DNA of 64,000 bases from Eledone cirrhosa (lineage: Eukaryota), in assembly GCA_964016885.1 (NCBI GenBank), contig OZ024744.1, positions 65,410,001 through 65,474,000 of the forward strand, written 5' to 3'. Shown one piece after another: positions 14,054 through 64,000 of the stretch (position 1 is its first letter; every line of letters begins with the position of its first letter). A program made the translations under genes and the position numbers. Below the pieces are notes generated by a model, which was not told the DNA's origin, made no database searches, and worked only from the letters and a program-made list of their open reading frames with translations.

Positions 14054-14178
14054 AGCTATTTCGGCAATGGAAACTGAGATCTGATTGAAAAAAAAAAAAA
14101 AAAAAAAAAAAAGCTACTGGAAAAACAGAGAGGAGTCTTGTATTTTTTCTTATCACGTACCGCAAGACAAATTAGAAG

Positions 14179-17560: not shown

Positions 17561-17682
17561 CCAAAAGTACCGCCCCAACACTGCGGAGATCGCAAAGAAG
17601 TCGTAAACCACCAACCTGGACAGCAGACTTTCATATGCAGAAGGACGAGGGGGAAATTGATCCTTGAGATCAGGAGGGGGTG

Positions 17683-32490: not shown

Positions 32491-32527
32491 ATAATATAAC
32501 ATATAGAATACATAAAGACACACTTAC

Positions 32528-32580
32528 TTCAAACTGCATTGAGTAGAATATTTGTTGTTGACGTTCTTGAAAATTTGAAA
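32528..32580 (-). CDS. MRCK: MRCK exon (coiled-coil/C1 linker): (x)SNFQERQQQIFYSMQFE
   Basis: Pyrimidine tract plus TAG acceptor at 32581-32583 and GTAAGT donor. 53 nt, phase 1 to 0, compatible with the next exon. Ends in QFE like the vertebrate MRCK linker (..DQFE). Confidence 0.75.
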
Positions 32581-37792: not shown

Positions 37793-38846
37793 AAAGATGT
37801 AGTGGGATCACAGGTAAGCTAACTAAGAACATAGATTTTACATGTGGCCGGTGCTCTGGTGCAATAAGTAGCAGCAAGTGCCCCAAAACTACTAGCTCTT
37901 TCAATTGCGCAGAGGGTTCTATAGAAATAGTGGACAGCTTCCGTTACCTGGGCGATAAAATCAGCAGTGGGAGAGGGTGCTCTGAAAGTACTGTAGCTAG
38001 AGTCAGAACTGGTTGGAAAAAGTTCACTATTAGCTGCTAAAGGGTCTCACTAAAAATGAAAGGCAGGTTGTACGATGCCTGCATACGAACAGCAATGCTG
38101 TATGGCAGTGAGACCTGGGCATTGTGTGCAGAGGATATACGCAGACTAGAGAGGAACGAAGCTTGCATGCTCCGCTGGATGTGTAACAGTAATATACGTG
38201 AACGGCAAAGCATAAACGAACTAAGGAAAAAATTAGAGATAAGAGGGATCAGATGTTTACTCGAGAGAAGGCTACGTTGGTATGGACACGTGATGCGCAT
38301 GAAAGTCGATAGCTGTATAACAAAGTGCAGGGCAATAAAGATAGACGGTAGCCACGGAATAGGCAGACCTAGAAAAACCTGGGACGAGCTGATAAACTCC
38401 GACCTCACACACTTACACCTCTCCAAGACAATGTCACTGGACCGAGACCTTTGGCGGTACTCAGTAACAGAGAAGACCCGCCTTGCCAGTAGGCATCTCT
38501 AACAAAATACACCCCGTCCCGCCACCTCCCCCACCCATCCACACCACCCGTCCTATGTAAAGTTATGTTGGTGCCGCGCCATCCAGGCCGAAACAAATGA
38601 GATCGTGTAGGTGCCACGACAAAAAAACACACAGTCCACGCTGTAATGTGGCCGTGTAGGCAACACGGTAAAAACCTCCCAGACCCACACTGTAAATGTG
38701 GTTGGTGTTAGGAAGGGCATCCAACTGTAGAAAACCTGCCAGACAGTCCTATACGAGCAAGACAATCACTCTTGCCTCAAGTGGGACTACCCCCGTCCAA
38801 ACCCATGCAAGCGTGGAACACGGACGTTAAACGTTGATGATGATGA
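37793..38846 (+). mobile_element. 5'-truncated RTE LINE, copy 1 in the satellite (1054 bp, most diverged)
   Basis: RT C-terminus (FRYLG, LYGSETW, RRLRWYGHVMR, GRPRKTW), 3' UTR and (TGA)n tail. Carries private 14-, 1- and 3-bp deletions. Confidence 0.95.
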
Positions 38847-40457
38847 TATGGATTGGTTTGGAAAGGAAGACCAATGTCCATGGCCCTACATTATTTTATA
38901 TTATTATATATGGATTGGTTTGGAAAGGAAGACCAATGTCCATGGCCCAACATTCTTTTATATTATTATATATGGATTGGTTTGGAAAGGAAGACCAATG
39001 TCCATGGCCCTACATTCTTTTATACTATTATATATGGATTGGTTTGGAAGGGAAGACAAATGTCCATGGCCCTACATTCTTTTATATTATTATATATGGA
39101 TTGGTCTGGAAAGGAAGACCAATGTCCATGGCCCTACATTCTTTTATATTATTATATATGGATTGGTTTGGAAGGGAGAGCAATGTCCATGGCCCTACAT
39201 TCTTTTATACTATTATATATGGATTGGTTTAGAAGGGAGAGCAATGTCCATGGCCCTACATTCTTTTATACTATTATATATGGATTGGTTTGGAAGGGAA
39301 GACCAATGTCCATGGCCCTACATTCTTTTATATTATTATATATGGATTGGTTTGGAAAGGAAGACCAATGTCCATGGCCCTACATTCTTTTTTATTATAA
39401 TATATGGATTGGTTTGGTAGGGAAGACCAATGTCCATGGCCCAACATTCTTTTGTATTATTATATATGGATTGGTTTGGAAGGGAGAGCAATGTCCATGG
39501 CCCTACATTCTTTTATACTATTATATATATGGATTGGTTTGGAAGGGAAGACCAATGTCCATGGCCCAACATTCTTTTATATTATTATATATGGATTGGT
39601 CTGGAAAGGAAGACCAATGTCCATGGCCCAACATTCTTTTTTATTATAATATATGGATTGGTTTGGAAAGAAAGACCAATGTCCATGGCCCAACATTCTT
39701 TTATATTATTATATATGGATTGGTTTGGAAAGAAGACCAATGTCCATGGCCCTACATTCTTTTATATTATTATATATGGATTGGTTTGGAAGGGAAGACC
39801 AATGTCCATGGCCCTACATTCTTTTATATTATTATATATGGATTGGTTTGGAAAGGAAGACCAATGTCCATGGCCCTACATTCTTTTATATTATTATATA
39901 TGGATTGGTTTGGAAAGGAAGACCAATGTCCATGGCCCTACATTCTTTTTTATTATAATATATGGATTGGTTTGGTAGGGAAGACCAATGTCCATGGCCC
40001 AACATTCTTTTATATTATTATATATGGATTGGTTTGGAAAGGAAGACCAATGTCCATGGTCCTACATTCTTTTATACTATTATATATGGATTGGTTTGGA
40101 AGGGAGAGCAATGTCCATGGCCCTACATTCTTTTATACTATTATATATGGATTGGTTTGGAAGGGAAGACCAATGTCCATGGCCCTACATTCTTTTATAC
40201 TATTATATATGGATTGGTTTGGAAAGGAAGACCAATGTCCATGGCCCTACATTCTTTTATACTATTATATATGGATTGGTTTGGAAGGGAAGACCAATGT
40301 CCATGGCCCTACATTCTTTTTTATTATAATATATGGATTGGTCTGGTAGGGAAGACCAATGTCCATGGCCCAACATTCTTTTGTATTATTATATATGGAT
40401 TGGTTTGGAAAGGAAAACCAATGTCCATGGCCCTACATTCTTTTATATTATTATATA

Positions 40458-41529
40458 AAAGATGTAGTGGGATCACAGGTAAGCTAACTAAGAACATAGA
40501 TTTTACATGTGGCCGGTGCTCTGGTGCAATAAGTAGCAGCAAGTGCCCACAGACTACTAGCTCTTTCAATTGCGCAGAGGGTTCTATAGAAATAGTGGAC
40601 AGCTTCCGTTACCTGGGCAATAAAATCAGCAGTGGGGGAGGGTGCTCTGAAAGTACTGTAGCTAGAGTCAGAACTGGTTGGAAAAAGTTCAGAGAGCTTA
40701 TACCACTATTAGCTGCTAAAGGGTTCTCACTAAAAATGAAAGGCAGGTTGTACGATGCCTGCATACGAACAGCAATGCTGCATGGCAGTGAGACCTGGGC
40801 ATTGTGTGCAGAGGATATACGCAGACTAGAGAGGAACGAAGCTTGCATGCTCCGCTGGATGTGTAACAGTAATATACGTGAACGGCAAAGCATAAACGAA
40901 CTAAGGAAAAAATTAGAGATAAGAGGGATCAGATGTTGTTTGCTCGAGAGAAGGCTACGTTGGTATGGACACGTGATGCGCATGAAAGTCGATAGCTGTA
41001 TAACAAAGTGCAGGGCAATAAAGATAGACGGTAGCCACGGAATAGGCAGACCTAGAAAAACCTGGGACGAGCTGATAAACTCCGACCTCACACACTTACA
41101 CCTCTCCAAGACAATGTCACTGGACCGAGACCTTTGGCGGTACTCAGTAACAGAGAAGACCCGCCTTGCCAGTAGGCATCTCTAACAAAATACACCCCGT
41201 CCCGCCACCTCCCCCACCCATCCACACCACCCGTCCTATGTAAAGTTATGTTGGTGCCGCGCCATCCAGGCCGAAACAAATGAGATCGTGTAGGTGTCAC
41301 GACAAAAAAACACACAGTCCACGCTGTAATGTGGCCGTGTAGGCAACACGGTAAAAACCTCCCAGACCCACACTGTAAATGTGGTTGGTGTTAGGAAGGG
41401 CATCCAACTGTAGAAAACCTGCCAGACAGTCCTATGCGAGCAAGACAATCACTCTTGCCTCAAGTGGGACTACCCCCGTCCAAACCCATGCAAGCGTGGA
41501 ACACGGACGTTAAACGTTGATGATGATGA
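40458..41529 (+). mobile_element. RTE LINE copy 2 (1072 bp)
   Basis: Same junctions as copy 1; YLGN allele. Confidence 0.95.
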
Positions 41530-43140
41530 TATGGATTGGTTTGGAAAGGAAGACCAATGTCCATGGCCCTACATTATTTTATATTATTATATATGGATTG
41601 GTTTGGAAAGGAAGACCAATGTCCATGGCCCAACATTCTTTTATATTATTATATATGGATTGGTTTGGAAAGGAAGACCAATGTCCATGGCCCTACATTC
41701 TTTTATACTATTATATATGGATTGGTTTGGAAGGGAAGACAAATGTCCATGGCCCTACATTCTTTTATATTATTATATATGGATTGGTCTGGAAAGGAAG
41801 ACCAATGTCCATGGCCCTACATTCTTTTATATTATTATATATGGATTGGTTTGGAAGGGAGAGCAATGTCCATGGCCCTACATTCTTTTATACTATTATA
41901 TATGGATTGGTTTAGAAGGGAGAGCAATGTCCATGGCCCTACATTCTTTTATACTATTATATATGGATTGGTTTGGAAGGGAAGACCAATGTCCATGGCC
42001 CTACATTCTTTTATATTATTATATATGGATTGGTTTGGAAAGGAAGACCAATGTCCATGGCCCTACATTCTTTTTTATTATAATATATGGATTGGTTTGG
42101 TAGGGAAGACCAATGTCCATGGCCCAACATTCTTTTGTATTATTATATATGGATTGGTTTGGAAGGGAGAGCAATGTCCATGGCCCTACATTCTTTTATA
42201 CTATTATATATATGGATTGGTTTGGAAGGGAAGACCAATGTCCATGGCCCAACATTCTTTTATATTATTATATATGGATTGGTCTGGAAAGGAAGACCAA
42301 TGTCCATGGCCCAACATTCTTTTTTATTATAATATATGGATTGGTTTGGAAAGAAAGACCAATGTCCATGGCCCAACATTCTTTTATATTATTATATATG
42401 GATTGGTTTGGAAAGAAGACCAATGTCCATGGCCCTACATTCTTTTATATTATTATATATGGATTGGTTTGGAAGGGAAGACCAATGTCCATGGCCCTAC
42501 ATTCTTTTATATTATTATATATGGATTGGTTTGGAAAGGAAGACCAATGTCCATGGCCCTACATTCTTTTATATTATTATATATGGATTGGTTTGGAAAG
42601 GAAGACCAATGTCCATGGCCCTACATTCTTTTTTATTATAATATATGGATTGGTTTGGTAGGGAAGACCAATGTCCATGGCCCAACATTCTTTTATATTA
42701 TTATATATGGATTGGTTTGGAAAGGAAGACCAATGTCCATGGTCCTACATTCTTTTATACTATTATATATGGATTGGTTTGGAAGGGAGAGCAATGTCCA
42801 TGGCCCTACATTCTTTTATACTATTATATATGGATTGGTTTGGAAGGGAAGACCAATGTCCATGGCCCTACATTCTTTTATACTATTATATATGGATTGG
42901 TTTGGAAAGGAAGACCAATGTCCATGGCCCTACATTCTTTTATACTATTATATATGGATTGGTTTGGAAGGGAAGACCAATGTCCATGGCCCTACATTCT
43001 TTTTTATTATAATATATGGATTGGTCTGGTAGGGAAGACCAATGTCCATGGCCCAACATTCTTTTGTATTATTATATATGGATTGGTTTGGAAAGGAAAA
43101 CCAATGTCCATGGCCCTACATTCTTTTATATTATTATATA

Positions 43141-44212
43141 AAAGATGTAGTGGGATCACAGGTAAGCTAACTAAGAACATAGATTTTACATGTGGCCGGT
43201 GCTCTGGTGCAATAAGTAGCAGCAAGTGCCCACAGACTACTAGCTCTTTCAATTGCGCAGAGGGTTCTATAGAAATAGTGGACAGCTTCCGTTACCTGGG
43301 CAATAAAATCAGCAGTGGGGGAGGGTGCTCTGAAAGTACTGTAGCTAGAGTCAGAACTGGTTGGAAAAAGTTCAGAGAGCTTATACCACTATTAGCTGCT
43401 AAAGGGTTCTCACTAAAAATGAAAGGCAGGTTGTACGATGCCTGCATACGAACAGCAATGCTGCATGGCAGTGAGACCTGGGCATTGTGTGCAGAGGATA
43501 TACGCAGACTAGAGAGGAACGAAGCTTGCATGCTCCGCTGGATGTGTAACAGTAATATACGTGAACGGCAAAGCATAAACGAACTAAGGAAAAAATTAGA
43601 GATAAGAGGGATCAGATGTTGTTTGCTCGAGAGAAGGCTACGTTGGTATGGACACGTGATGCGCATGAAAGTCGATAGCTGTATAACAAAGTGCAGGGCA
43701 ATAAAGATAGACGGTAGCCACGGAATAGGCAGACCTAGAAAAACCTGGGACGAGCTGATAAACTCCGACCTCACACACTTACACCTCTCCAAGACAATGT
43801 CACTGGACCGAGACCTTTGGCGGTACTCAGTAACAGAGAAGACCCGCCTTGCCAGTAGGCATCTCTAACAAAATACACCCCGTCCCGCCACCTCCCCCAC
43901 CCATCCACACCACCCGTCCTATGTAAAGTTATGTTGGTGCCGCGCCATCCAGGCCGAAACAAATGAGATCGTGTAGGTGTCACGACAAAAAAACACACAG
44001 TCCACGCTGTAATGTGGCCGTGTAGGCAACACGGTAAAAACCTCCCAGACCCACACTGTAAATGTGGTTGGTGTTAGGAAGGGCATCCAACTGTAGAAAA
44101 CCTGCCAGACAGTCCTATGCGAGCAAGACAATCACTCTTGCCTCAAGTGGGACTACCCCCGTCCAAACCCATGCAAGCGTGGAACACGGACGTTAAACGT
44201 TGATGATGATGA
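43141..44212 (+). mobile_element. RTE LINE copy 3 (1072 bp)
   Basis: Offset +2683 from copy 2; YLGN allele. Confidence 0.95.
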
Positions 44213-45635
44213 TATGGATTGGTTTGGAAAGGAAGACCAATGTCCATGGCCCTACATTATTTTATATTATTATATATGGATTGGTTTGGAAAGGAAGACC
44301 AATGTCCATGGCCCAACATTCTTTTATATTATTATATATGGATTGGTTTGGAAAGGAAGACCAATGTCCATGGCCCTACATTCTTTTATACTATTATATA
44401 TGGATTGGTTTGGAAGGGAAGACAAATGTCCATGGCCCTACATTCTTTTATATTATTATATATGGATTGGTCTGGAAAGGAAGACCAATGTCCATGGCCC
44501 TACATTCTTTTATATTATTATATATGGATTGGTTTGGAAGGGAGAGCAATGTCCATGGCCCTACATTCTTTTATACTATTATATATGGATTGGTTTAGAA
44601 GGGAGAGCAATGTCCATGGCCCTACATTCTTTTATACTATTATATATGGATTGGTTTGGAAGGGAAGACCAATGTCCATGGCCCTACATTCTTTTATATT
44701 ATTATATATGGATTGGTTTGGAAAGGAAGACCAATGTCCATGGCCCTACATTCTTTTTTATTATAATATATGGATTGGTTTGGTAGGGAAGACCAATGTC
44801 CATGGCCCAACATTCTTTTATATTATTATATATGGATTGGTTTGGAAAGGAAGACCAATGTCCATGGTCCTACATTCTTTTATACTATTATATATGGATT
44901 GGTTTGGAAGGGAGAGCAATGTCCATGGCCCTACATTCTTTTATACTATTATATATGGATTGGTTTGGAAGGGAAGACCAATGTCCATGGCCCTACATTC
45001 TTTTATACTATTATATATGGATTGGTTTGGAAAGGAAGACCAATGTCCATGGCCCAACATTCTTTTATATTATTATATATGGATTGGTTTGGAAGGGAGA
45101 GCAATGTCCATGGCCCTACATTCTTTTATACTATTATATATGGATTGGTTTGGAAGGGAAGACCAATGTCCATGGCCCTACATTCTTTTATACTATTATA
45201 TATGGATTGGTTTGGAAAGGAAGACCAATGTCCATGGCCCTACATTCTTTTTTATTATAATATATGGATTGGTTTGGTAGGGAAGACCAATGTCCATGGC
45301 CCAACATTCTTTTATATTATTATATATGGATTGGTTTGGAAAGGAAGACCAATGTCCATGGTCCTACATTCTTTTATACTATTATATATGGATTGGTTTG
45401 GAAGGGAGAGCAATGTCCATGGCCCTACATTCTTTTATACTATTATATATGGATTGGTTTGGAAGGGAAGACCAATGTCCATGGCCCTACATTCTTTTTT
45501 ATTATAATATATGGATTGGTCTGGTAGGGAAGACCAATGTCCATGGCCCAACATTCTTTTGTATTATTATATATGGATTGGTTTGGAAAGGAAAACCAAT
45601 GTCCATGGCCCTACATTCTTTTATATTATTATATA

Positions 45636-46707
45636 AAAGATGTAGTGGGATCACAGGTAAGCTAACTAAGAACATAGATTTTACATGTGGCCGGTGCTCT
45701 GGTGCAATAAGTAGCAGCAAGTGCCCACAGACTACTAGCTCTTTCAATTGCGCAGAGGGTTCTATAGAAATAGTGGACAGCTTCCGTTACCTGGGCGATA
45801 AAATCAGCAGTGGGGGAGGGTGCTCTGAAAGTACTGTAGCTAGAGTCAGAACTGGTTGGAAAAAGTTCAGAGAGCTTATACCACTATTAGCTGCTAAAGG
45901 GTTCTCACTAAAAATGAAAGGCAGGTTGTACGATGCCTGCATACGAACAGCAATGCTGCATGGCAGTGAGACCTGGGCATTGTGTGCAGAGGATATACGC
46001 AGACTAGAGAGGAACGAAGCTTGCATGCTCCGCTGGATGTGTAACAGTAATATACGTGAACGGCAAAGCATAAACGAACTAAGGAAAAAATTAGAGATAA
46101 GAGGGATCAGATGTTGTTTGCTCGAGAGAAGGCTACGTTGGTATGGACACGTGATGCGCATGAAAGTCGATAGCTGTATAACAAAGTGCAGGGCAATAAA
46201 GATAGACGGTAGCCACGGAATAGGCAGACCTAGAAAAACCTGGGACGAGCTGATAAACTCCGACCTCACACACTTACACCTCTCCAAGACAATGTCACTG
46301 GACCGAGACCTTTGGCGGTACTCAGTAACAGAGAAGACCCGCCTTGCCAGTAGGCATCTCTAACAAAATACACCCCGTCCCGCCACCTCCCCCACCTATC
46401 CACACCACCCGTCCTATGTAAAGTTATGTTGGTGCCGCGCCATCCAGGCCGAAACAAATGAGATCGTGTAGGTGTCACGACAAAAAAACACACAGTCCAC
46501 GCTGTAATGTGGCCGTGTAGGCAACACGGTAAAAACCTCCCAGACCCACACTGTAAATGTGGTTGGTGTTAGGAAGGGCATCCAACTGTAGAAAACCTGC
46601 CAGACAGTCCTATGCGAGCAAGACAATCACTCTTGCCTCAAGTGGGACTACCCCCGTCCAAACCCATGCAAGCGTGGAACACGGACGTTAAACGTTGATG
46701 ATGATGA
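45636..46707 (+). mobile_element. RTE LINE copy 4 (1072 bp)
   Basis: Same junctions; YLGD allele; one private SNP in the 3' UTR (CCTATCC). Confidence 0.95.
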
Positions 46708-49700
46708 TATGGATTGGTTTGGAAAGGAAGACCAATGTCCATGGCCCTACATTATTTTATATTATTATATATGGATTGGTTTGGAAAGGAAGACCAATGT
46801 CCATGGCCCAACATTCTTTTATATTATTATATATGGATTGGTTTGGAAAGGAAGACCAATGTCCATGGCCCAACATTCTTTTATATTATTATATATGGAT
46901 TGGTTTGGAAAGGAAGACCAATGTCCATGGCCCAACATTCTTTTATATTATTATATATGGATTGGTTTGGAAAGGAAGACCAATGTCCATGGCCCAACAT
47001 TCTTTTATATTATTATATATGGATTGGTTTGGAAAGGAAGACCAATGTCCATGGCCCAACATTCTTTTATATTATTATATATGGATTGGTTTGGAAAGGA
47101 AGACCAATGTCCATGGCCCTACATTCTTTTATACTATTATATATGGATTGGTTTGGAAGGGAAGACAAATGTCCATGGCCCTACATTCTTTTATATTATT
47201 ATATATGGATTGGTCTGGAAAGGAAGACCAATGTCCATGGCCCTACATTCTTTTATATTATTATATATGGATTGGTTTGGAAGGGAGAGCAATGTCCATG
47301 GCCCTACATTCTTTTATACTATTATATATGGATTGGTTTAGAAGGGAGAGCAATGTCCATGGCCCTACATTCTTTTATACTATTATATATGGATTGGTTT
47401 GGAAGGGAAGACCAATGTCCATGGCCCTACATTCTTTTATATTATTATATATGGATTGGTTTGGAAAGGAAGACCAATGTCCATGGCCCTACATTCTTTT
47501 ATATTATTATATATGGATTGGTTTGGAAAGGAAGACCAATGTCCATGGCCCTACATTCTTTTATATTATTATATATGGATTGGTTTGGAAAGGAAGACCA
47601 ATGTCCATGGCCCTACATTCTTTTTTATTATAATATATGGATTGGTTTGGTAGGGAAGACCAATGTCCATGGCCCAACATTCTTTTATATTATTATATAT
47701 GGATTGGTTTGGAAAGGAAGACCAATGTCCATGGTCCTACATTCTTTTATACTATTATATATGGATTGGTTTGGAAGGGAGAGCAATGTCCATGGCCCTA
47801 CATTCTTTTATACTATTATATATGGATTGGTTTGGAAGGGAAGACCAATGTCCATGGCCCTACATTCTTTTATACTATTATATATGGATTGGTTTGGAAG
47901 GGAAGACCAATGTCCATGGCCCTACATTCTTTTTTATTATAATATATGCATTGGTTTGGAAAGGAAGACCAATGTCCATGGCCCTACATTCTTTTATATT
48001 ATAATATATGGATTGGTTTGGAAGGGAAGACCAATGTCCATGGCCCTACATTCTTTTATATTATTATATATTGATTGGTTTGGAAAGGAAGACCAATGTC
48101 CATGGCCCTACATTCTTTTTTATTATAATATATGGATTGGTCTGGTAGGGAAGACCAATGTCCATGGCCCAACATTCTTTTGTATTATTATATATGGATT
48201 GGTTTGGAAAGGAAAACCAATGTCCATGGCCCTACATTCTTTTATACTATTATATATGGATTGGTTTGGAAGGGAAAACAAATGTCCATGGCCCTACATT
48301 CTTTTATATTATAATATATGGATTGGTTTGGAAAGAAGACCAATGTCCATGGCCCTACATTCTTTTATATTATTATATATGGATTGATTTGGAAAGAAGA
48401 CCAATGTCCATGGCCCTACATTCTTTTATATTATTATATATGGATTGATTTGGAAGGGAAGACCAATGTCCATGGCCCTACATTATTTTATATTATTATA
48501 TATGGATTGGTTTGGAAAGAAGACCAATGTCCATGGCCCTACATTCTTTTATATTATTATATATGGATTGATTTGGAAGGGAAGACCAATGTCCATGGCC
48601 CTACATTCTTTTATATTATTATATATGGATTGGTTTGGAAAGGAAGACCAATGTCCATGGCCCTACATTATTTTATATTATTATATATGGATTGGTTTGG
48701 AAAGGAAGACCAATGTCCATGGCCCTACATTCTTTTTTATTATAATATATGGATTGGTTTGGTAGGGAAGACCAATGTCCATGGCCCAACATTCTTTTAT
48801 ATTATTATATATGGATTGGTTTGGAAAGGAAGACCAATGTCCATGGCCCTACATTCTTTTATACTATTATATATGGATTGGTTTGGAAAGGAAGACCAAT
48901 GTCCATGGCCCAACATTCTTTTATATTATTATATATGGATTGGTTTGGAAGGGAAGACCAATGTCCATGGCCCTACATTCTTTTATACTATTATATATGG
49001 ATTGGTTTGGAAGGGAAGACAAATGTCCATGGCCCTACATTCTTTTATATTATTATATATGGATTGGTCTGGAAAGGAAGACCAATGTCCATGGCCCTAC
49101 ATTCTTTTATATTATTATATATGGATTGGTTTGGAAGGGAGAGCAATGTCCATGGCCCTACATTCTTTTATACTATTATATATGGATTGGTTTAGAAGGG
49201 AGAGCAATGTCCATGGCCCTACATTCTTTTATACTATTATATATGGATTGGTTTGGAAGGGAAGACCAATGTCCATGGCCCTACATCTTTTATATTATTA
49301 TATTTGGATTGGTTTGGAAGGGAAGACCAATGTCCATGGCCCTACATTCTTTTAATTATATATGGATTGGTTTGGAAAGGAAGACCAATGTCCATGGCCC
49401 TACATTCTTTTTTATTATAATATATGGATTGGTTTGGAAAGGAAGACCAATGTCCATGGCCCTACATTCTTTTTTATTATTATATATGGATTGGTTTGGA
49501 AGGGAAGACCAATGTCCATGGCCCAACATTCTTTTGTATTATTATATATGGATTGGTTTGGAAAGAAAGACCAATGTCCATGGCCCTACATTCTTTTATA
49601 TTATTATATATGGATTGGTTTCGAAAGAAGACCAATGTCCATGGCCCTACATTCTTTTATATTATTATATATGGATTGGTTTGGAAGGGAAGACCAATGT

Positions 49701-52146
49701 CCATGGCCCTACATTCTTTTATATTATTATATATGGATTGGTTTGGAAAGGAAGACCAATGTCCATGGCCCTACATTCTTTTATATTATTATATATGGAT
49801 TGGTTTCGAAAGAAGACCAATGTCCATGGCCCTACATTCTTTTATATTATTATATATGGATTGGTTTGGAAGGGAAGACCAATGTCCATGGCCCTACATT
49901 CTTTTATATTATTATATATGGATTGGTTTGGAAAGGAAGACCAATGTCCATGGCCCTACATTCTTTTATATTATTATATATGGATTGGTTTGGAAAGGAA
50001 GACCAATGTCCATGGCCCTACATTCTTTTTTATTATAATATATGGATTGGTTTGGTAGGGAAGACCAATGTCCATGGCCCAACATTCTTTTATATTATTA
50101 TATATGGATTGGTTTGGAAAGGAAGACCAATGTCCATGGCCCTACATTCTTTTTTATTATTATATATGGATTGGTTTGGAAAGGAAGACCAATGTCCATG
50201 GCCCTACATTCTTTTTTATTATTATATATGGATTGGTTTGGAAAGGAAGACCAATGTCCATGGTCCTACATTCTTTTATACTATTATATATGGATTGGTT
50301 TGGAAGGGAGAGCAATGTCCATGGCCCTACATTCTTTTATACTATTATATATGGATTGGTTTGGAAGGGAAGACCAATGTCCATGGCCCTACATTCTTTT
50401 ATACTATTATATATGGATTGGTTTGGAAAGGAAGACCAATGTCCATGGCCCTACATTCTTTTATACTATTATATATGGATTGGTTTGGAAAGGAAGACCA
50501 ATGTCCATGGCCCTACATTCTTTTTTATTATTATATATGGATTGGTTTGGAAAGGAAGACCAATGTCCATGGCCCTACATTCTTTTTTATTATTATATAT
50601 GGATTGGTTTGGAAAGGAAGACCAATGTCCATGGCCCTACATTCTTTTTTATTATAATATATGGATTGGTTTGGAAGGGAGAGCAATGTCCATGGCCCTA
50701 CATTCTTTTATACTATTATATATGGATTGGTTTGGAAAGGAAGACCAATGTCCATGGCCCTACATTCTTTTTTATTATAATATATGGATTGGTTTGGTAG
50801 GGAAGACCAATGTCCATGGCCCAACATTCTTTTATATTATTATATATAGATTGGTTTGGAAAGGAAGACCAATGTCCATGGCCCTACATTCTTTTATATT
50901 ATTATATATGGATTGGTTTAGAAGGGAGAGCAATGTCCATGGCCCTACATTCTTTTATACTATTATATATGGATTGGTTTGGAAGGGAAGACCAATGTCC
51001 ATGGCCCTACATTCTTTTATATTATTATATATGGATTGGTTTGGAAAGGAAGACCAATGTCCATGGCCCTACATTCTTTTTTATTATAATATATGGATTG
51101 GTTTGGTAGGGAAGACCAATGTCCATGGCCCAACATTCTTTTGTATTATTATATATGGATTGGTTTGGAAGGGAGAGCAATGTCCATGGCCCTACATTCT
51201 TTTATACTATTATATATATGGATTGGTTTGGAAGGGAAGACCAATGTCCATGGCCCAACATTCTTTTATATTATTATATATGGATTGGTCTGGAAAGGAA
51301 GACCAATGTCCATGGCCCAACATTCTTTTTTATTATAATATATGGATTGGTTTGGAAAGAAAGACCAATGTCCATGGCCCAACATTCTTTTATATTATTA
51401 TATATGGATTGGTTTGGAAAGAAGACCAATGTCCATGGCCCTACATTCTTTTATATTATTATATATGGATTGGTTTGGAAGGGAAGACCAATGTCCATGG
51501 CCCTACATTCTTTTATATTATTATATATGGATTGGTTTGGAAAGGAAGACCAATGTCCATGGCCCTACATTCTTTTATATTATTATATATGGATTGGTTT
51601 GGAAAGGAAGACCAATGTCCATGGCCCTACATTCTTTTTTATTATAATATATGGATTGGTTTGGTAGGGAAGACCAATGTCCATGGCCCAACATTCTTTT
51701 ATATTATTATATATGGATTGGTTTGGAAAGGAAGACCAATGTCCATGGTCCTACATTCTTTTATACTATTATATATGGATTGGTTTGGAAGGGAGAGCAA
51801 TGTCCATGGCCCTACATTCTTTTATACTATTATATATGGATTGGTTTGGAAGGGAAGACCAATGTCCATGGCCCTACATTCTTTTATACTATTATATATG
51901 GATTGGTTTGGAAAGGAAGACCAATGTCCATGGCCCTACATTCTTTTATACTATTATATATGGATTGGTTTGGAAGGGAAGACCAATGTCCATGGCCCTA
52001 CATTCTTTTTTATTATAATATATGGATTGGTCTGGTAGGGAAGACCAATGTCCATGGCCCAACATTCTTTTGTATTATTATATATGGATTGGTTTGGAAA
52101 GGAAAACCAATGTCCATGGCCCTACATTCTTTTATATTATTATATA

Positions 52147-53218
52147 AAAGATGTAGTGGGATCACAGGTAAGCTAACTAAGAACATAGATTTTACATGTG
52201 GCCGGTGCTCTGGTGCAATAAGTAGCAGCAAGTGCCCACAGACTACTAGCTCTTTCAATTGCGCAGAGGGTTCTATAGAAATAGTGGACAGCTTCCGTTA
52301 CCTGGGCAATAAAATCAGCAGTGGGGGAGGGTGCTCTGAAAGTACTGTAGCTAGAGTCAGAACTGGTTGGAAAAAGTTCAGAGAGCTTATACCACTATTA
52401 GCTGCTAAAGGGTTCTCACTAAAAATGAAAGGCAGGTTGTACGATGCCTGCATACGAACAGCAATGCTGCATGGCAGTGAGACCTGGGCATTGTGTGCAG
52501 AGGATATACGCAGACTAGAGAGGAACGAAGCTTGCATGCTCCGCTGGATGTGTAACAGTAATATACGTGAACGGCAAAGCATAAACGAACTAAGGAAAAA
52601 ATTAGAGATAAGAGGGATCAGATGTTGTTTGCTCGAGAGAAGGCTACGTTGGTATGGACACGTGATGCGCATGAAAGTCGATAGCTGTATAACAAAGTGC
52701 AGGGCAATAAAGATAGACGGTAGCCACGGAATAGGCAGACCTAGAAAAACCTGGGACGAGCTGATAAACTCCGACCTCACACACTTACACCTCTCCAAGA
52801 CAATGTCACTGGACCGAGACCTTTGGCGGTACTCAGTAACAGAGAAGACCCGCCTTGCCAGTAGGCATCTCTAACAAAATACACCCCGTCCCGCCACCTC
52901 CCCCACCCATCCACACCACCCGTCCTATGTAAAGTTATGTTGGTGCCGCGCCATCCAGGCCGAAACAAATGAGATCGTGTAGGTGTCACGACAAAAAAAC
53001 ACACAGTCCACGCTGTAATGTGGCCGTGTAGGCAACACGGTAAAAACCTCCCAGACCCACACTGTAAATGTGGTTGGTGTTAGGAAGGGCATCCAACTGT
53101 AGAAAACCTGCCAGACAGTCCTATGCGAGCAAGACAATCACTCTTGCCTCAAGTGGGACTACCCCCGTCCAAACCCATGCAAGCGTGGAACACGGACGTT
53201 AAACGTTGATGATGATGA
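52147..53218 (+). mobile_element. RTE LINE copy 5 (1072 bp)
   Basis: Same junctions; YLGN allele. Confidence 0.95.
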
Positions 53219-56200
53219 TATGGATTGGTTTGGAAAGGAAGACCAATGTCCATGGCCCTACATTATTTTATATTATTATATATGGATTGGTTTGGAAAGG
53301 AAGACCAATGTCCATGGCCCAACATTCTTTTATATTATTATATATGGATTGGTTTGGAAAGGAAGACCAATGTCCATGGCCCAACATTCTTTTATATTAT
53401 TATATATGGATTGGTTTGGAAAGGAAGACCAATGTCCATGGCCCAACATTCTTTTATATTATTATATATGGATTGGTTTGGAAAGGAAGACCAATGTCCA
53501 TGGCCCAACATTCTTTTATATTATTATATATGGATTGGTTTGGAAAGGAAGACCAATGTCCATGGCCCAACATTCTTTTATATTATTATATATGGATTGG
53601 TTTGGAAAGGAAGACCAATGTCCATGGCCCAACATTCTTTTATATTATTATATATGGATTGGTTTGGAAAGGAAGACCAATGTCCATGGCCCTACATTCT
53701 TTTATACTATTATATATGGATTGGTTTGGAAGGGAAGACAAATGTCCATGGCCCTACATTCTTTTATATTATTATATATGGATTGGTCTGGAAAGGAAGA
53801 CCAATGTCCATGGCCCTACATTCTTTTATATTATTATATATGGATTGGTTTGGAAGGGAGAGCAATGTCCATGGCCCTACATTCTTTTATACTATTATAT
53901 ATGGATTGGTTTAGAAGGGAGAGCAATGTCCATGGCCCTACATTCTTTTATACTATTATATATGGATTGGTTTGGAAGGGAAGACCAATGTCCATGGCCC
54001 TACATTCTTTTATATTATTATATATGGATTGGTTTGGAAAGGAAGACCAATGTCCATGGCCCTACATTCTTTTATATTATTATATATGGATTGGTTTGGA
54101 AAGGAAGACCAATGTCCATGGCCCTACATTCTTTTATATTATTATATATGGATTGGTTTGGAAAGGAAGACCAATGTCCATGGCCCTACATTCTTTTTTA
54201 TTATAATATATGGATTGGTTTGGTAGGGAAGACCAATGTCCATGGCCCAACATTCTTTTATATTATTATATATGGATTGGTTTGGAAAGGAAGACCAATG
54301 TCCATGGTCCTACATTCTTTTATACTATTATATATGGATTGGTTTGGAAGGGAGAGCAATGTCCATGGCCCTACATTCTTTTATACTATTATATATGGAT
54401 TGGTTTGGAAGGGAAGACCAATGTCCATGGCCCTACATTCTTTTATACTATTATATATGGATTGGTTTGGAAGGGAAGACCAATGTCCATGGCCCTACAT
54501 TCTTTTTTATTATAATATATGCATTGGTTTGGAAAGGAAGACCAATGTCCATGGCCCTACATTCTTTTATATTATAATATATGGATTGGTTTGGAAGGGA
54601 AGACCAATGTCCATGGCCCTACATTCTTTTATATTATTATATATTGATTGGTTTGGAAAGGAAGACCAATGTCCATGGCCCTACATTCTTTTTTATTATA
54701 ATATATGGATTGGTCTGGTAGGGAAGACCAATGTCCATGGCCCAACATTCTTTTGTATTATTATATATGGATTGGTTTGGAAAGGAAAACCAATGTCCAT
54801 GGCCCTACATTCTTTTATACTATTATATATGGATTGGTTTGGAAGGGAAAACAAATGTCCATGGCCCTACATTCTTTTATATTATAATATATGGATTGGT
54901 TTGGAAAGAAGACCAATGTCCATGGCCCTACATTCTTTTATATTATTATATATGGATTGATTTGGAAAGAAGACCAATGTCCATGGCCCTACATTCTTTT
55001 ATATTATTATATATGGATTGATTTGGAAGGGAAGACCAATGTCCATGGCCCTACATTATTTTATATTATTATATATGGATTGGTTTGGAAAGAAGACCAA
55101 TGTCCATGGCCCTACATTCTTTTATATTATTATATATGGATTGATTTGGAAGGGAAGACCAATGTCCATGGCCCTACATTCTTTTATATTATTATATATG
55201 GATTGGTTTGGAAAGGAAGACCAATGTCCATGGCCCTACATTATTTTATATTATTATATATGGATTGGTTTGGAAAGGAAGACCAATGTCCATGGCCCTA
55301 CATTCTTTTTTATTATAATATATGGATTGGTTTGGTAGGGAAGACCAATGTCCATGGCCCAACATTCTTTTATATTATTATATATGGATTGGTTTGGAAA
55401 GGAAGACCAATGTCCATGGCCCTACATTCTTTTATACTATTATATATGGATTGGTTTGGAAAGGAAGACCAATGTCCATGGCCCAACATTCTTTTATATT
55501 ATTATATATGGATTGGTTTGGAAGGGAAGACCAATGTCCATGGCCCTACATTCTTTTATACTATTATATATGGATTGGTTTGGAAGGGAAGACAAATGTC
55601 CATGGCCCTACATTCTTTTATATTATTATATATGGATTGGTCTGGAAAGGAAGACCAATGTCCATGGCCCTACATTCTTTTATATTATTATATATGGATT
55701 GGTTTGGAAGGGAGAGCAATGTCCATGGCCCTACATTCTTTTATACTATTATATATGGATTGGTTTAGAAGGGAGAGCAATGTCCATGGCCCTACATTCT
55801 TTTATACTATTATATATGGATTGGTTTGGAAGGGAAGACCAATGTCCATGGCCCTACATCTTTTATATTATTATATTTGGATTGGTTTGGAAGGGAAGAC
55901 CAATGTCCATGGCCCTACATTCTTTTAATTATATATGGATTGGTTTGGAAAGGAAGACCAATGTCCATGGCCCTACATTCTTTTTTATTATAATATATGG
56001 ATTGGTTTGGAAAGGAAGACCAATGTCCATGGCCCTACATTCTTTTTTATTATTATATATGGATTGGTTTGGAAGGGAAGACCAATGTCCATGGCCCAAC
56101 ATTCTTTTGTATTATTATATATGGATTGGTTTGGAAAGAAAGACCAATGTCCATGGCCCTACATTCTTTTATATTATTATATATGGATTGGTTTCGAAAG

Positions 56201-58719
56201 AAGACCAATGTCCATGGCCCTACATTCTTTTATATTATTATATATGGATTGGTTTGGAAGGGAAGACCAATGTCCATGGCCCTACATTCTTTTATATTAT
56301 TATATATGGATTGGTTTGGAAAGGAAGACCAATGTCCATGGCCCTACATTCTTTTATATTATTATATATGGATTGGTTTCGAAAGAAGACCAATGTCCAT
56401 GGCCCTACATTCTTTTATATTATTATATATGGATTGGTTTGGAAGGGAAGACCAATGTCCATGGCCCTACATTCTTTTATATTATTATATATGGATTGGT
56501 TTGGAAAGGAAGACCAATGTCCATGGCCCTACATTCTTTTATATTATTATATATGGATTGGTTTGGAAAGGAAGACCAATGTCCATGGCCCTACATTCTT
56601 TTTTATTATAATATATGGATTGGTTTGGTAGGGAAGACCAATGTCCATGGCCCAACATTCTTTTATATTATTATATATGGATTGGTTTGGAAAGGAAGAC
56701 CAATGTCCATGGCCCTACATTCTTTTTTATTATTATATATGGATTGGTTTGGAAAGGAAGACCAATGTCCATGGCCCTACATTCTTTTTTATTATTATAT
56801 ATGGATTGGTTTGGAAAGGAAGACCAATGTCCATGGTCCTACATTCTTTTATACTATTATATATGGATTGGTTTGGAAGGGAGAGCAATGTCCATGGCCC
56901 TACATTCTTTTATACTATTATATATGGATTGGTTTGGAAGGGAAGACCAATGTCCATGGCCCTACATTCTTTTATACTATTATATATGGATTGGTTTGGA
57001 AAGGAAGACCAATGTCCATGGCCCTACATTCTTTTATACTATTATATATGGATTGGTTTGGAAAGGAAGACCAATGTCCATGGCCCTACATTCTTTTTTA
57101 TTATTATATATGGATTGGTTTGGAAAGGAAGACCAATGTCCATGGCCCTACATTCTTTTTTATTATTATATATGGATTGGTTTGGAAAGGAAGACCAATG
57201 TCCATGGCCCTACATTCTTTTTTATTATAATATATGGATTGGTTTGGAAGGGAGAGCAATGTCCATGGCCCTACATTCTTTTATACTATTATATATGGAT
57301 TGGTTTGGAAAGGAAGACCAATGTCCATGGCCCTACATTCTTTTTTATTATAATATATGGATTGGTTTGGTAGGGAAGACCAATGTCCATGGCCCAACAT
57401 TCTTTTATATTATTATATATAGATTGGTTTGGAAAGGAAGACCAATGTCCATGGCCCTACATTCTTTTATATTATTATATATGGATTGGTTTAGAAGGGA
57501 GAGCAATGTCCATGGCCCTACATTCTTTTATACTATTATATATGGATTGGTTTGGAAGGGAAGACCAATGTCCATGGCCCTACATTCTTTTATATTATTA
57601 TATATGGATTGGTTTGGAAAGGAAGACCAATGTCCATGGCCCTACATTCTTTTTTATTATAATATATGGATTGGTTTGGTAGGGAAGACCAATGTCCATG
57701 GCCCAACATTCTTTTGTATTATTATATATGGATTGGTTTGGAAGGGAGAGCAATGTCCATGGCCCTACATTCTTTTATACTATTATATATATGGATTGGT
57801 TTGGAAGGGAAGACCAATGTCCATGGCCCAACATTCTTTTATATTATTATATATGGATTGGTCTGGAAAGGAAGACCAATGTCCATGGCCCAACATTCTT
57901 TTTTATTATAATATATGGATTGGTTTGGAAAGAAAGACCAATGTCCATGGCCCAACATTCTTTTATATTATTATATATGGATTGGTTTGGAAAGAAGACC
58001 AATGTCCATGGCCCTACATTCTTTTATATTATTATATATGGATTGGTTTGGAAGGGAAGACCAATGTCCATGGCCCTACATTCTTTTATATTATTATATA
58101 TGGATTGGTTTGGAAAGGAAGACCAATGTCCATGGCCCTACATTCTTTTATATTATTATATATGGATTGGTTTGGAAAGGAAGACCAATGTCCATGGCCC
58201 TACATTCTTTTTTATTATAATATATGGATTGGTTTGGTAGGGAAGACCAATGTCCATGGCCCAACATTCTTTTATATTATTATATATGGATTGGTTTGGA
58301 AAGGAAGACCAATGTCCATGGTCCTACATTCTTTTATACTATTATATATGGATTGGTTTGGAAGGGAGAGCAATGTCCATGGCCCTACATTCTTTTATAC
58401 TATTATATATGGATTGGTTTGGAAGGGAAGACCAATGTCCATGGCCCTACATTCTTTTATACTATTATATATGGATTGGTTTGGAAAGGAAGACCAATGT
58501 CCATGGCCCTACATTCTTTTATACTATTATATATGGATTGGTTTGGAAGGGAAGACCAATGTCCATGGCCCTACATTCTTTTTTATTATAATATATGGAT
58601 TGGTCTGGTAGGGAAGACCAATGTCCATGGCCCAACATTCTTTTGTATTATTATATATGGATTGGTTTGGAAAGGAAAACCAATGTCCATGGCCCTACAT
58701 TCTTTTATATTATTATATA

Positions 58720-59791
58720 AAAGATGTAGTGGGATCACAGGTAAGCTAACTAAGAACATAGATTTTACATGTGGCCGGTGCTCTGGTGCAATAAGTAGCA
58801 GCAAGTGCCCACAGACTACTAGCTCTTTCAATTGCGCAGAGGGTTCTATAGAAATAGTGGACAGCTTCCGTTACCTGGGCAATAAAATCAGCAGTGGGGG
58901 AGGGTGCTCTGAAAGTACTGTAGCTAGAGTCAGAACTGGTTGGAAAAAGTTCAGAGAGCTTATACCACTATTAGCTGCTAAAGGGTTCTCACTAAAAATG
59001 AAAGGCAGGTTGTACGATGCCTGCATACGAACAGCAATGCTGCATGGCAGTGAGACCTGGGCATTGTGTGCAGAGGATATACGCAGACTAGAGAGGAACG
59101 AAGCTTGCATGCTCCGCTGGATGTGTAACAGTAATATACGTGAACGGCAAAGCATAAACGAACTAAGGAAAAAATTAGAGATAAGAGGGATCAGATGTTG
59201 TTTGCTCGAGAGAAGGCTACGTTGGTATGGACACGTGATGCGCATGAAAGTCGATAGCTGTATAACAAAGTGCAGGGCAATAAAGATAGACGGTAGCCAC
59301 GGAATAGGCAGACCTAGAAAAACCTGGGACGAGCTGATAAACTCCGACCTCACACACTTACACCTCTCCAAGACAATGTCACTGGACCGAGACCTTTGGC
59401 GGTACTCAGTAACAGAGAAGACCCGCCTTGCCAGTAGGCATCTCTAACAAAATACACCCCGTCCCGCCACCTCCCCCACCCATCCACACCACCCGTCCTA
59501 TGTAAAGTTATGTTGGTGCCGCGCCATCCAGGCCGAAACAAATGAGATCGTGTAGGTGTCACGACAAAAAAACACACAGTCCACGCTGTAATGTGGCCGT
59601 GTAGGCAACACGGTAAAAACCTCCCAGACCCACACTGTAAATGTGGTTGGTGTTAGGAAGGGCATCCAACTGTAGAAAACCTGCCAGACAGTCCTATGCG
59701 AGCAAGACAATCACTCTTGCCTCAAGTGGGACTACCCCCGTCCAAACCCATGCAAGCGTGGAACACGGACGTTAAACGTTGATGATGATGA
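58720..59791 (+). mobile_element. RTE LINE copy 6 (1072 bp)
   Basis: Offset +6573 from copy 5; YLGN allele. Confidence 0.95.
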
Positions 59792-61214
59792 TATGGATTG
59801 GTTTGGAAAGGAAGACCAATGTCCATGGCCCTACATTATTTTATATTATTATATATGGATTGGTTTGGAAAGGAAGACCAATGTCCATGGCCCAACATTC
59901 TTTTATATTATTATATATGGATTGGTTTGGAAAGGAAGACCAATGTCCATGGCCCTACATTCTTTTATACTATTATATATGGATTGGTTTGGAAGGGAAG
60001 ACAAATGTCCATGGCCCTACATTCTTTTATATTATTATATATGGATTGGTCTGGAAAGGAAGACCAATGTCCATGGCCCTACATTCTTTTATATTATTAT
60101 ATATGGATTGGTTTGGAAGGGAGAGCAATGTCCATGGCCCTACATTCTTTTATACTATTATATATGGATTGGTTTAGAAGGGAGAGCAATGTCCATGGCC
60201 CTACATTCTTTTATACTATTATATATGGATTGGTTTGGAAGGGAAGACCAATGTCCATGGCCCTACATTCTTTTATATTATTATATATGGATTGGTTTGG
60301 AAAGGAAGACCAATGTCCATGGCCCTACATTCTTTTTTATTATAATATATGGATTGGTTTGGTAGGGAAGACCAATGTCCATGGCCCAACATTCTTTTAT
60401 ATTATTATATATGGATTGGTTTGGAAAGGAAGACCAATGTCCATGGTCCTACATTCTTTTATACTATTATATATGGATTGGTTTGGAAGGGAGAGCAATG
60501 TCCATGGCCCTACATTCTTTTATACTATTATATATGGATTGGTTTGGAAGGGAAGACCAATGTCCATGGCCCTACATTCTTTTATACTATTATATATGGA
60601 TTGGTTTGGAAAGGAAGACCAATGTCCATGGCCCAACATTCTTTTATATTATTATATATGGATTGGTTTGGAAGGGAGAGCAATGTCCATGGCCCTACAT
60701 TCTTTTATACTATTATATATGGATTGGTTTGGAAGGGAAGACCAATGTCCATGGCCCTACATTCTTTTATACTATTATATATGGATTGGTTTGGAAAGGA
60801 AGACCAATGTCCATGGCCCTACATTCTTTTTTATTATAATATATGGATTGGTTTGGTAGGGAAGACCAATGTCCATGGCCCAACATTCTTTTATATTATT
60901 ATATATGGATTGGTTTGGAAAGGAAGACCAATGTCCATGGTCCTACATTCTTTTATACTATTATATATGGATTGGTTTGGAAGGGAGAGCAATGTCCATG
61001 GCCCTACATTCTTTTATACTATTATATATGGATTGGTTTGGAAGGGAAGACCAATGTCCATGGCCCTACATTCTTTTTTATTATAATATATGGATTGGTC
61101 TGGTAGGGAAGACCAATGTCCATGGCCCAACATTCTTTTGTATTATTATATATGGATTGGTTTGGAAAGGAAAACCAATGTCCATGGCCCTACATTCTTT
61201 TATATTATTATATA

Positions 61215-62286
61215 AAAGATGTAGTGGGATCACAGGTAAGCTAACTAAGAACATAGATTTTACATGTGGCCGGTGCTCTGGTGCAATAAGTAGCAGCAAG
61301 TGCCCACAGACTACTAGCTCTTTCAATTGCGCAGAGGGTTCTATAGAAATAGTGGACAGCTTCCGTTACCTGGGCGATAAAATCAGCAGTGGGGGAGGGT
61401 GCTCTGAAAGTACTGTAGCTAGAGTCAGAACTGGTTGGAAAAAGTTCAGAGAGCTTATACCACTATTAGCTGCTAAAGGGTTCTCACTAAAAATGAAAGG
61501 CAGGTTGTACGATGCCTGCATACGAACAGCAATGCTGCATGGCAGTGAGACCTGGGCATTGTGTGCAGAGGATATACGCAGACTAGAGAGGAACGAAGCT
61601 TGCATGCTCCGCTGGATGTGTAACAGTAATATACGTGAACGGCAAAGCATAAACGAACTAAGGAAAAAATTAGAGATAAGAGGGATCAGATGTTGTTTGC
61701 TCGAGAGAAGGCTACGTTGGTATGGACACGTGATGCGCATGAAAGTCGATAGCTGTATAACAAAGTGCAGGGCAATAAAGATAGACGGTAGCCACGGAAT
61801 AGGCAGACCTAGAAAAACCTGGGACGAGCTGATAAACTCCGACCTCACACACTTACACCTCTCCAAGACAATGTCACTGGACCGAGACCTTTGGCGGTAC
61901 TCAGTAACAGAGAAGACCCGCCTTGCCAGTAGGCATCTCTAACAAAATACACCCCGTCCCGCCACCTCCCCCACCCATCCACACCACCCGTCCTATGTAA
62001 AGTTATGTTGGTGCCGCGCCATCCAGGCCGAAACAAATGAGATCGTGTAGGTGTCACGACAAAAAAACACACAGTCCACGCTGTAATGTGGCCGTGTAGG
62101 CAACACGGTAAAAACCTCCCAGACCCACACTGTAAATGTGGTTGGTGTTAGGAAGGGCATCCAACTGTAGAAAACCTGCCAGACAGTCCTATGCGAGCAA
62201 GACAATCACTCTTGCCTCAAGTGGGACTACCCCCGTCCAAACCCATGCAAGCGTGGAACACGGACGTTAAACGTTGATGATGATGA
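61215..62286 (+). mobile_element. RTE LINE copy 7 (1072 bp)
   Basis: Offset +15579 from copy 4; YLGD allele. Confidence 0.95.
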
Positions 62287-64000
62287 TATGGATTGGTTTG
62301 GAAAGGAAGACCAATGTCCATGGCCCTACATTATTTTATATTATTATATATGGATTGGTTTGGAAAGGAAGACCAATGTCCATGGCCCAACATTCTTTTA
62401 TATTATTATATATGGATTGGTTTGGAAAGGAAGACCAATGTCCATGGCCCAACATTCTTTTATATTATTATATATGGATTGGTTTGGAAAGGAAGACCAA
62501 TGTCCATGGCCCAACATTCTTTTATATTATTATATATGGATTGGTTTGGAAAGGAAGACCAATGTCCATGGCCCAACATTCTTTTATATTATTATATATG
62601 GATTGGTTTGGAAAGGAAGACCAATGTCCATGGCCCAACATTCTTTTATATTATTATATATGGATTGGTTTGGAAAGGAAGACCAATGTCCATGGCCCTA
62701 CATTCTTTTATACTATTATATATGGATTGGTTTGGAAGGGAAGACAAATGTCCATGGCCCTACATTCTTTTATATTATTATATATGGATTGGTCTGGAAA
62801 GGAAGACCAATGTCCATGGCCCTACATTCTTTTATATTATTATATATGGATTGGTTTGGAAGGGAGAGCAATGTCCATGGCCCTACATTCTTTTATACTA
62901 TTATATATGGATTGGTTTAGAAGGGAGAGCAATGTCCATGGCCCTACATTCTTTTATACTATTATATATGGATTGGTTTGGAAGGGAAGACCAATGTCCA
63001 TGGCCCTACATTCTTTTATATTATTATATATGGATTGGTTTGGAAAGGAAGACCAATGTCCATGGCCCTACATTCTTTTATATTATTATATATGGATTGG
63101 TTTGGAAAGGAAGACCAATGTCCATGGCCCTACATTCTTTTATATTATTATATATGGATTGGTTTGGAAAGGAAGACCAATGTCCATGGCCCTACATTCT
63201 TTTTTATTATAATATATGGATTGGTTTGGTAGGGAAGACCAATGTCCATGGCCCAACATTCTTTTATATTATTATATATGGATTGGTTTGGAAAGGAAGA
63301 CCAATGTCCATGGTCCTACATTCTTTTATACTATTATATATGGATTGGTTTGGAAGGGAGAGCAATGTCCATGGCCCTACATTCTTTTATACTATTATAT
63401 ATGGATTGGTTTGGAAGGGAAGACCAATGTCCATGGCCCTACATTCTTTTATACTATTATATATGGATTGGTTTGGAAGGGAAGACCAATGTCCATGGCC
63501 CTACATTCTTTTTTATTATAATATATGCATTGGTTTGGAAAGGAAGACCAATGTCCATGGCCCTACATTCTTTTATATTATAATATATGGATTGGTTTGG
63601 AAGGGAAGACCAATGTCCATGGCCCTACATTCTTTTATATTATTATATATTGATTGGTTTGGAAAGGAAGACCAATGTCCATGGCCCTACATTCTTTTTT
63701 ATTATAATATATGGATTGGTCTGGTAGGGAAGACCAATGTCCATGGCCCAACATTCTTTTGTATTATTATATATGGATTGGTTTGGAAAGGAAAACCAAT
63801 GTCCATGGCCCTACATTCTTTTATACTATTATATATGGATTGGTTTGGAAGGGAAAACAAATGTCCATGGCCCTACATTCTTTTATATTATAATATATGG
63901 ATTGGTTTGGAAAGAAGACCAATGTCCATGGCCCTACATTCTTTTATATTATTATATATGGATTGATTTGGAAAGAAGACCAATGTCCATGGCCCTACAT

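Follow-up and report, generated by a model that had tools for sequence, protein, structure and literature searches.

Results

An MRCK intron filled by a 62-bp repeat

The window analyzed here, a stretch of 64,000 nucleotides from the 3.0-Gb genome of the octopod Eledone cirrhosa (C28:65410001-65474000), carries sequence of the kinase gene MRCK/CDC42BP, which lies on the minus strand. One intron of this gene is occupied by an array of a 62-bp satellite in which seven fragments of a long interspersed nuclear element (LINE) are embedded. Coordinates are window positions, and extended coordinates continue past 64000 on C28. One CNH exon is 94% identical to that of Octopus vulgaris MRCK alpha-like, and tblastn placed exons for amino acids 1 to 1713 of the O. 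vulgaris orthologue collinearly on C28. This identity to a named orthologue and the exon collinearity identify a gene of the family with the order kinase, coiled coil, C1, PH and CNH.

The array-bearing intron has GT-AG ends, with the donor GT after the exon at 68338-68440 (extended coordinates) and the acceptor AG at 32582-32581, and the 53-bp exon follows directly downstream. The flanking exons match in phase (phase 1) and read D-G-K-I-S-N-F-Q across the junction, versus E-S-K-I-T-N-F-Q in the orthologue. The gene is intact, in agreement with a preliminary description of the locus, which had called it apparently intact. Skipping of the 53-bp exon would shift the MRCK reading frame.

The array fills 97% of the intron (34.7 kb of 35,757 bp), and LINE sequence makes up 22% of its length. 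It extends from 32641, about 60 bp from the acceptor of the 53-bp exon, to approximately 67345 (C28:65477345), which is 3.3 kb past the window end; the preliminary description had let it start at 37793, 5 kb too late. That description had also proposed a monomer-variant decomposition and a genome-wide monomer search. The decomposition resolved 439 monomers of 60 types in ordered variants, 351 of them exactly 62 bp long; the average distance of a monomer from the commonest type is 2.4 positions. The search placed the satellite at a single locus, as all matches in the genome to a 23-nt exact pattern (243/243) fall within the array. Comparison of the monomer with 12 dispersed LINE loci and 189 kb of flanks gave no meaningful similarity, the best hit being 14 bp long at E 0.06; lacking homology to the LINE, the satellite does not qualify as transposon-derived.

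Seven LINE fragments from one insertion

All seven LINE copies (7/7) share the same 40-bp left flank, 5' end, tail and right flank. This bears out the earlier claim of a single insertion with common truncation and junctions, and the differing junctions that would have pointed to separate insertions were not found. The candidate explanation of independent LINE insertions is ruled out by the common truncation, tail, monomer context and source sub-lineage. From L1 to L7 the spacers measure 1612, 1612, 1424, 5440, 5502 and 1424 bp, in the order reported before and 1 bp longer because of the choice of boundary. The segment after L7 had been taken for a further S3 spacer; it matches S3 only to 66477, and then the array ends.

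Among L2-L7, 2 of 1071 sites vary. Compared with L2, L1 has 9 substitutions and 3 deletions (14, 1 and 3 bp), and against L2-L7 it has 8-9 substitutions, so that the seven copies are alike in their junctions, as stated earlier, but not in the sequence of L1. The single-nucleotide polymorphism (SNP) at position 162, G in L1/L4/L7 and A in L2/L3/L5/L6, follows the type of the preceding spacer, in agreement with the preliminary description. It lies outside the catalytic motif, YADD, which sits further upstream in a full-length copy. An origin of L1 as a copy of another genomic element was considered and is unsupported; among the 40 matches scored out of 1254 candidates, the best dispersed one is 96-97% identical over 441 bp. 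A 2-bp repeat flanks the 14-bp deletion carried by L1 (window 38024), and at least four dispersed copies that are unrelated in other respects (L037-L039, L041) have it too, which may point to a deletion hot spot or to conversion donors.

Table 1. Host-gene parts, satellite segments, LINE fragments and young duplications at the locus.
Feature	Position	Strand	Basis
MRCK/CDC42BP coding exon, 53 bp, ~aa 885-902 of P0001	32528..32580	-	tblastn of P0001; splice sites and phase from sequence
MRCK intron with array, 35,757 bp	32581..64000, on to 68337 (extended)	-	tblastn, splice sites
S0, left part of the 62-bp array, free of LINE copies	32641..37792		monomer decomposition
Empty pre-insertion target monomer, J-K-A-L-C-H-M context	34043..34104		monomer decomposition and repeat comparison
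L1, 5'-truncated RTE-like LINE fragment, 1053 bp, most diverged copy	37793..38845	+	
S1 spacer copy a, 26 monomers	38846..40457		
L2, A at 162	40458..41528	+	
S1 spacer copy b	41529..43140		
L3, A at 162	43141..44211	+	
S2 spacer copy a, 23 monomers	44212..45635		
L4, G at 162, private T at 762	45636..46706	+	
S3 spacer, 88 monomers	46707..52146		
L5, identical to L2, L3, L6	52147..53217	+	
S3' spacer, 89 monomers	53218..58719		
L6, A at 162	58720..59790	+	
S2 spacer copy b	59791..61214		
L7, G at 162; 2-3 substitutions from nearest dispersed members	61215..62285	+	
Terminal satellite: S3 head, then unique end	62286..64000, on to ~67345		
Young 2683-bp tandem duplication, 0 mismatches	38754..44119		
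Young 9006-bp duplication, 2 mismatches	41864..64000, second copy to 66477		
Youngest, nested 6573-bp tandem duplication, 0 mismatches	46755..59900		

Empty target site and source of the LINE

The LINE-free segment S0 begins with a degenerate first unit, and 14 of 17 singleton monomer types fall in it. The monomers J-K-A-L-C-H-M-G-N-B-A-E-U-P follow one another in it, including an A monomer (34043-34104) that nothing interrupts, and over the 725 bp at 34073-34797 it shows no difference from the sequence 3' of L1 and L2. S0 and S1 have 11 units in a row in common order, versus a maximum of 4 across 500 shuffles. A target site without the LINE thus survives in the same monomer order, and the higher-order pattern is older than the insertion.

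The LINE belongs to a young and abundant family: 40 scored of 1362 candidates are all 99-100% identical, and 34 of them are dispersed. One dispersed copy (L049, 2084-5296) lies within 0.3% of the array copies and has an intact single open reading frame (ORF) of 1070 amino acids, with Exo_endo_phos and RVT_1 matches above the Pfam cut-offs and a PHD-type finger after the reverse transcriptase match. Judged from this copy, the family is likely to be active. L049 thus has the ORF content of RTE elements, with apurinic endonuclease and reverse transcriptase in one reading frame, and (GAT)n tails end 7/7 array copies and 11/11 dispersed copies. RTE-clade elements end in short tandem repeats rather than poly(A). 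ORF content and tail together fit the RTE clade.

The closest dispersed copies (6/6) extend 5' of the array truncation point, indicating that the truncation is specific to the array insertion. At that point their upstream sequence ends in ATA, as does the target, so that the ATA is either a 3-nt target duplication or 5' microhomology. ATA also directly follows the tail in 10/11 dispersed copies, suggesting that the TATATA tract of the monomer is a normal target of the family. The nearest sub-lineage of both L1 and L7 is the same (L023/L025, at 6-7 and 2-3 substitutions, respectively), while 12 other dispersed copies compared with L1 and L7 show at least 13 substitutions. Just outside the array, in the next intron, a related LINE has left a fragment that is older and decayed (31790-32490).

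Tandem duplications as the probable source of the seven copies

Two adjacent perfect tandems, of 2683 bp and 6573 bp, are present in the assembled array. The offsets of 2683, 6573 and 15579 bp given in the preliminary description all correspond to exact or near-exact repeats; the last stands as an offset, but it is the sum of 9006 and 6573, and the large unit beneath it measures 9006 bp. The 9006-bp unit consists of S1 tail, LINE, S2, LINE and S3 head, and its tandem is exposed once one 6573-bp unit is removed, which places the nested 6573-bp event later of the two. With all three duplications undone, the array shrinks to 16.5 kb and three LINEs, and it no longer contains any near-perfect tandem of at least 500 bp. 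The upper 95% bounds on the divergence of the young duplicates are 0.06-0.14%.

The crossover windows differ in what they contain. That of the 2683-bp event comprises 701 positions (38754-39453) and holds the last 92 bp of the LINE together with satellite. The 9006-bp junction window comprises 51 positions of satellite only and yields a hybrid monomer, q, whose base at position 24 matches neither parent and falls on a common polymorphic site of the satellite. The 6573-bp junction window comprises 56 positions, again of satellite only, one monomer out of register, which explains why S3' has one monomer more. A LINE-LINE crossover that would have made L5 a hybrid of L6 and L4 is ruled out by the 56-position satellite window.

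Two of the three young junctions thus lie wholly in satellite, which suggests that the LINE has mostly been a passenger, a marker more than a driver. The seven copies represent one insertion followed by at least five duplications, of which the three young ones are seen in the assembled array and the older ones would be needed to explain the remaining copies.

Class of the array

Minisatellite units range roughly from 10 to 100 bp. The 62-bp unit falls in this range, and the array sits at one locus, in an intron with in-phase bounding exons. Centromeric satellites form arrays of hundreds of kb to Mb outside genes and are usually common to several chromosomes. The array shares higher-order monomer variants with them but not their very long extragenic arrays, being 34.7 kb long at one intronic locus, and the centromere-like architecture seen in it earlier is a weak comparison for one 35-kb locus. 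A macrosatellite consists of many head-to-tail copies of one multi-kb unit. Here three different nested units are each present as two tandem copies, and the earlier idea that a composite satellite-LINE macrosatellite is being built is not supported, given irregular units of two to three copies each and youngest junctions of which two of three ignore the LINE. The array is therefore a single-locus intronic minisatellite, neither a centromere-type satellite nor a macrosatellite.

Surroundings of the array

A small GC-rich repeat of ~40 bp with poly-G runs lies at extended 68027-68300 (L001), within the array-bearing intron and 40 bp from its donor end. A second MRCK intronic minisatellite has a purine-rich 30-bp unit (~203 copies, 6.1 kb, 93% matches; L011/L012, ~C28:65398300-65404400). 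TA-rich arrays are found in another MRCK intron (5.5 kb, beside a 200-N gap; L003, extended 83887-90843) and just beyond the last coding exon (9.7 kb; L014/L013, ~-39857 to -30183). Since other MRCK introns hold the 6-kb 30-bp minisatellite and the 5.5-kb TA-rich array, a large intronic array is not special here, and the position is not exceptional as had been supposed. Another MRCK intron carries a GC-rich element resembling a long terminal repeat (LTR) retrotransposon at 13830-17771, with matching 16-bp repeats at both ends, gag-protease and reverse transcriptase-like Pfam matches, and an ORF broken across several frames.

The array lies near the middle of C28 (65.4 of 136.5 Mb). Although larger than C5 (134.7 Mb), C28 (136.5 Mb) stands after C27 (22.4 Mb); C29 and C30 each measure ~50 kb. 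From this position out of size order, C28 may be the Z chromosome; a search of the text of two papers and of one supplementary file for a link between MRCK and the Z chromosome did not find one.

Discussion

Taken together, we propose that a single-locus 62-bp minisatellite in an MRCK intron took up one 5'-truncated LINE, which was then passively copied to seven by tandem duplications, and we assign this history a probability of about 0.74. The 62-bp unit expanded in an intron of ~1 kb and gained its higher-order variant order, as the presence of that order free of LINE in S0 shows. A very young RTE-like LINE would then have inserted once, antisense to MRCK, at the TATATA tract of a monomer, presumably by target-primed reverse transcription, leaving the observed junctions, which have 3 nt (ATA) in common. 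Older duplications, at least two in number, would have produced three LINE copies, and three young ones in head-to-tail arrangement, of 2683 bp, 9006 bp and last 6573 bp, then raised them to seven, as the arithmetic and the junction windows indicate. The exchanges were likely unequal crossovers or strand-annealing repair between out-of-register monomers. Because exons and splice sites are intact, the array is likely spliced out and near-neutral.

The preliminary description had spoken of recent co-amplification by unequal exchange or break-induced replication. Its recent tandem duplication stands; as for the route, unequal exchange and break-induced replication are indistinguishable at the level of sequence, which would fit either.

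Several observations weigh against the proposed history, and some of them favor a different account of the array. The satellite and the insertion could be real while at least one of the three young duplications was made by the assembler, through repeat mis-resolution or two haplotypes joined in tandem, leaving three to six LINE copies. The young duplicates differ by 0, 0 and 2 mismatches, as assembly error would also give, being exact over 3383 and 6628 bp and separated by one SNP over 9 kb. Read contigs were examined among the records listed, and such contigs drop rare branches; none of the runs listed as containing the sequence is an RNA run, and small shares in runs of other organisms are not counted. 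Those from runs X1-X3, which are one sample and possibly the assembly's own, contain both satellite and LINE, but none among the records listed spans the array or bridges a LINE-satellite junction. X4 and the restriction-site-associated DNA (RAD) runs X21-X23, from three other individuals, do not cover the satellite flanks and are uninformative on presence. A crude simulation implied a single-copy depth in X1 of 2-8 for the assembled array versus 5-16 for a collapsed one; the shallowest listed contigs are 17-40 deep, above the simulated depth, so that the satellite fits the collapsed version somewhat better and leans to fewer copies. Such depths are not copy numbers, and X1-X3 differ 2.5-fold on the satellite and agree on the LINE.

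Other features of the assembly speak for real duplications. No N gap interrupts the array, the nearest lying 17 kb beyond it. The longest exact repeat is 6.6 kb (6628 bp), or ~9 kb with one SNP, and reads of more than 10-15 kb would resolve it. The junctions create new hybrid monomer arrangements, among them q, one base of which neither parent has, and the nesting of the duplications follows a consistent order. Moreover, real variants separate L1, L3/L6 and L4/L7, so that at least three copies are no exact-duplication artefact. We regard an assembler origin of one or more of the young duplications as unlikely.

Also to be counted against one insertion with passive copying is the sequence of L1. 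No derived variant is common to L1 and L2-L7, and L1 has 8-9 derived changes versus 2 (p 0.07-0.11), an excess that is not as a simple single-insertion clock predicts. Several L1 variants recur in more distant dispersed copies, but these copies were picked out by a search for the variants themselves, and in so large a family matches are expected by recurrence. The L1 variants possibly arose by recurrent mutation or through short ectopic conversion tracts.

A further point of this kind is that the 2683-bp event could have been aligned through LINE homology. The LINE copies might then drive the expansion, through LINE-LINE homology or, after replication breaks in the array, through break-induced replication with template switching, toward composite units that become a macrosatellite. 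The 2683-bp window holds part of the LINE, in which L1-L3 homology could register it, the 9006-bp junction window contains one unexplained base, and L1 variants in dispersed copies are what ectopic conversion would give. However, two of the three young junctions are wholly satellite despite 1071 bp of perfect LINE homology, and the first duplication cannot have used LINE-LINE homology at all. In addition, the repeats in the 80 longest self-alignments are all direct, and the unexplained base in q sits at the common polymorphic site. Expansion driven by the LINE is very improbable.

We also considered that the array is functional chromatin, whether centromere-like, regulatory, or a length-dependent modulator of MRCK splicing. 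Its higher-order structure, its place near the middle of C28 and its start ~60 bp from a splice acceptor, that of the 53-bp exon that cannot be skipped without a frameshift, would suit such a role. According to the available part of one report, a variable number tandem repeat (VNTR) within an intron alters exon skipping in ABCA7 (PMC5954066). Against it, the array is 35 kb long at one locus inside a gene, unrelated arrays occupy other MRCK introns, and Rfam returned no match at E<=1 in 32400-41700 and thus no structured RNA. A functional role of this kind is extremely improbable.

More speculatively, the locus might be unstable and length-polymorphic, and possibly Z-linked, with multi-kb jumps that tune the splicing of the frame-critical MRCK exon, and might at the same time serve as a natural recorder of higher-order satellite formation, with LINE-tagged, fully reconstructable duplications and exchanges at ~50 bp of homology. 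We hold this combination to be distinctly unlikely.

If the assembly is right, the array is an unusually readable record of satellite evolution: it preserves the unoccupied site, the insertion and the nested set of three duplications, and it shows ~50 bp of monomer homology joining multi-kb duplications where 1 kb of perfect LINE homology had been bypassed. Large centromeric arrays rarely permit such a reconstruction. The locus also indicates that an octopod gene tolerates an intron enlarged ~30-fold by repeats right beside a splice acceptor. It is a very clean but ordinary case of repeat-array growth and involves no new kind of element or mechanism.

Comparison with known systems

Most subscription papers being outside reach, we found no published description of this MRCK array locus in the literature. 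Co-duplication of truncated retroelements is documented in ribosomal DNA (rDNA) and alpha-satellite arrays. New here are the surviving empty target site and the three tandem duplications that collapse seven LINEs to three. The comparisons below draw on the available portions of the cited papers.

A close parallel is R2 in rDNA, where a dead 5'-truncated non-LTR element is likewise multiplied in a tandem array and the truncation point marks common descent. In a stick insect, 5'-truncated R2 copies have been duplicated by unequal recombination in rDNA (PMC4370867). In Drosophila simulans, 335/386 R2 truncations are single-copy, and the seven copies found here exceed the figures given there (PMC3542110). 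Unlike rDNA, the host array here is a 62-bp non-coding intronic minisatellite, and the LINE is not site-specific.

In human alpha-satellite higher-order repeats, L1HS has been duplicated with flanking higher-order repeats, as the LINE has been here, with approximately three insertions/duplications per D2Z1 array (PMC11451754). Alpha-satellite arrays are, however, centromeric and far larger, whereas this array is 35 kb long, single-locus, intronic and 22% LINE.

The array resembles the intronic VNTRs of WDR7 (69 bp), CACNA1C (30 bp) and ABCA7 in its single-locus, minisatellite-sized intronic unit and its ordered variants (PMC13196383, for the two unit sizes with variant units; PMC5954066). It differs from them in the co-amplified LINE, of which those reports, as far as available, describe none.

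RTE LINEs are abundant and probably active in octopus (PMC9115989, PMC10925132). The family described here is like RTE-2_OV, a young octopod element with a single ORF of ~1100 amino acids for endonuclease and reverse transcriptase, a likeness by description; it differs in having a PHD-type finger where RTE-2_OV has a C2H2 finger (PMC9115989). Finally, as in the giant introns of the Drosophila Y, which satellites and transposons fill, a functional gene here contains an intron made mostly of tandem repeat, although those introns reach megabases and this one measures 36 kb (PMC6508613).

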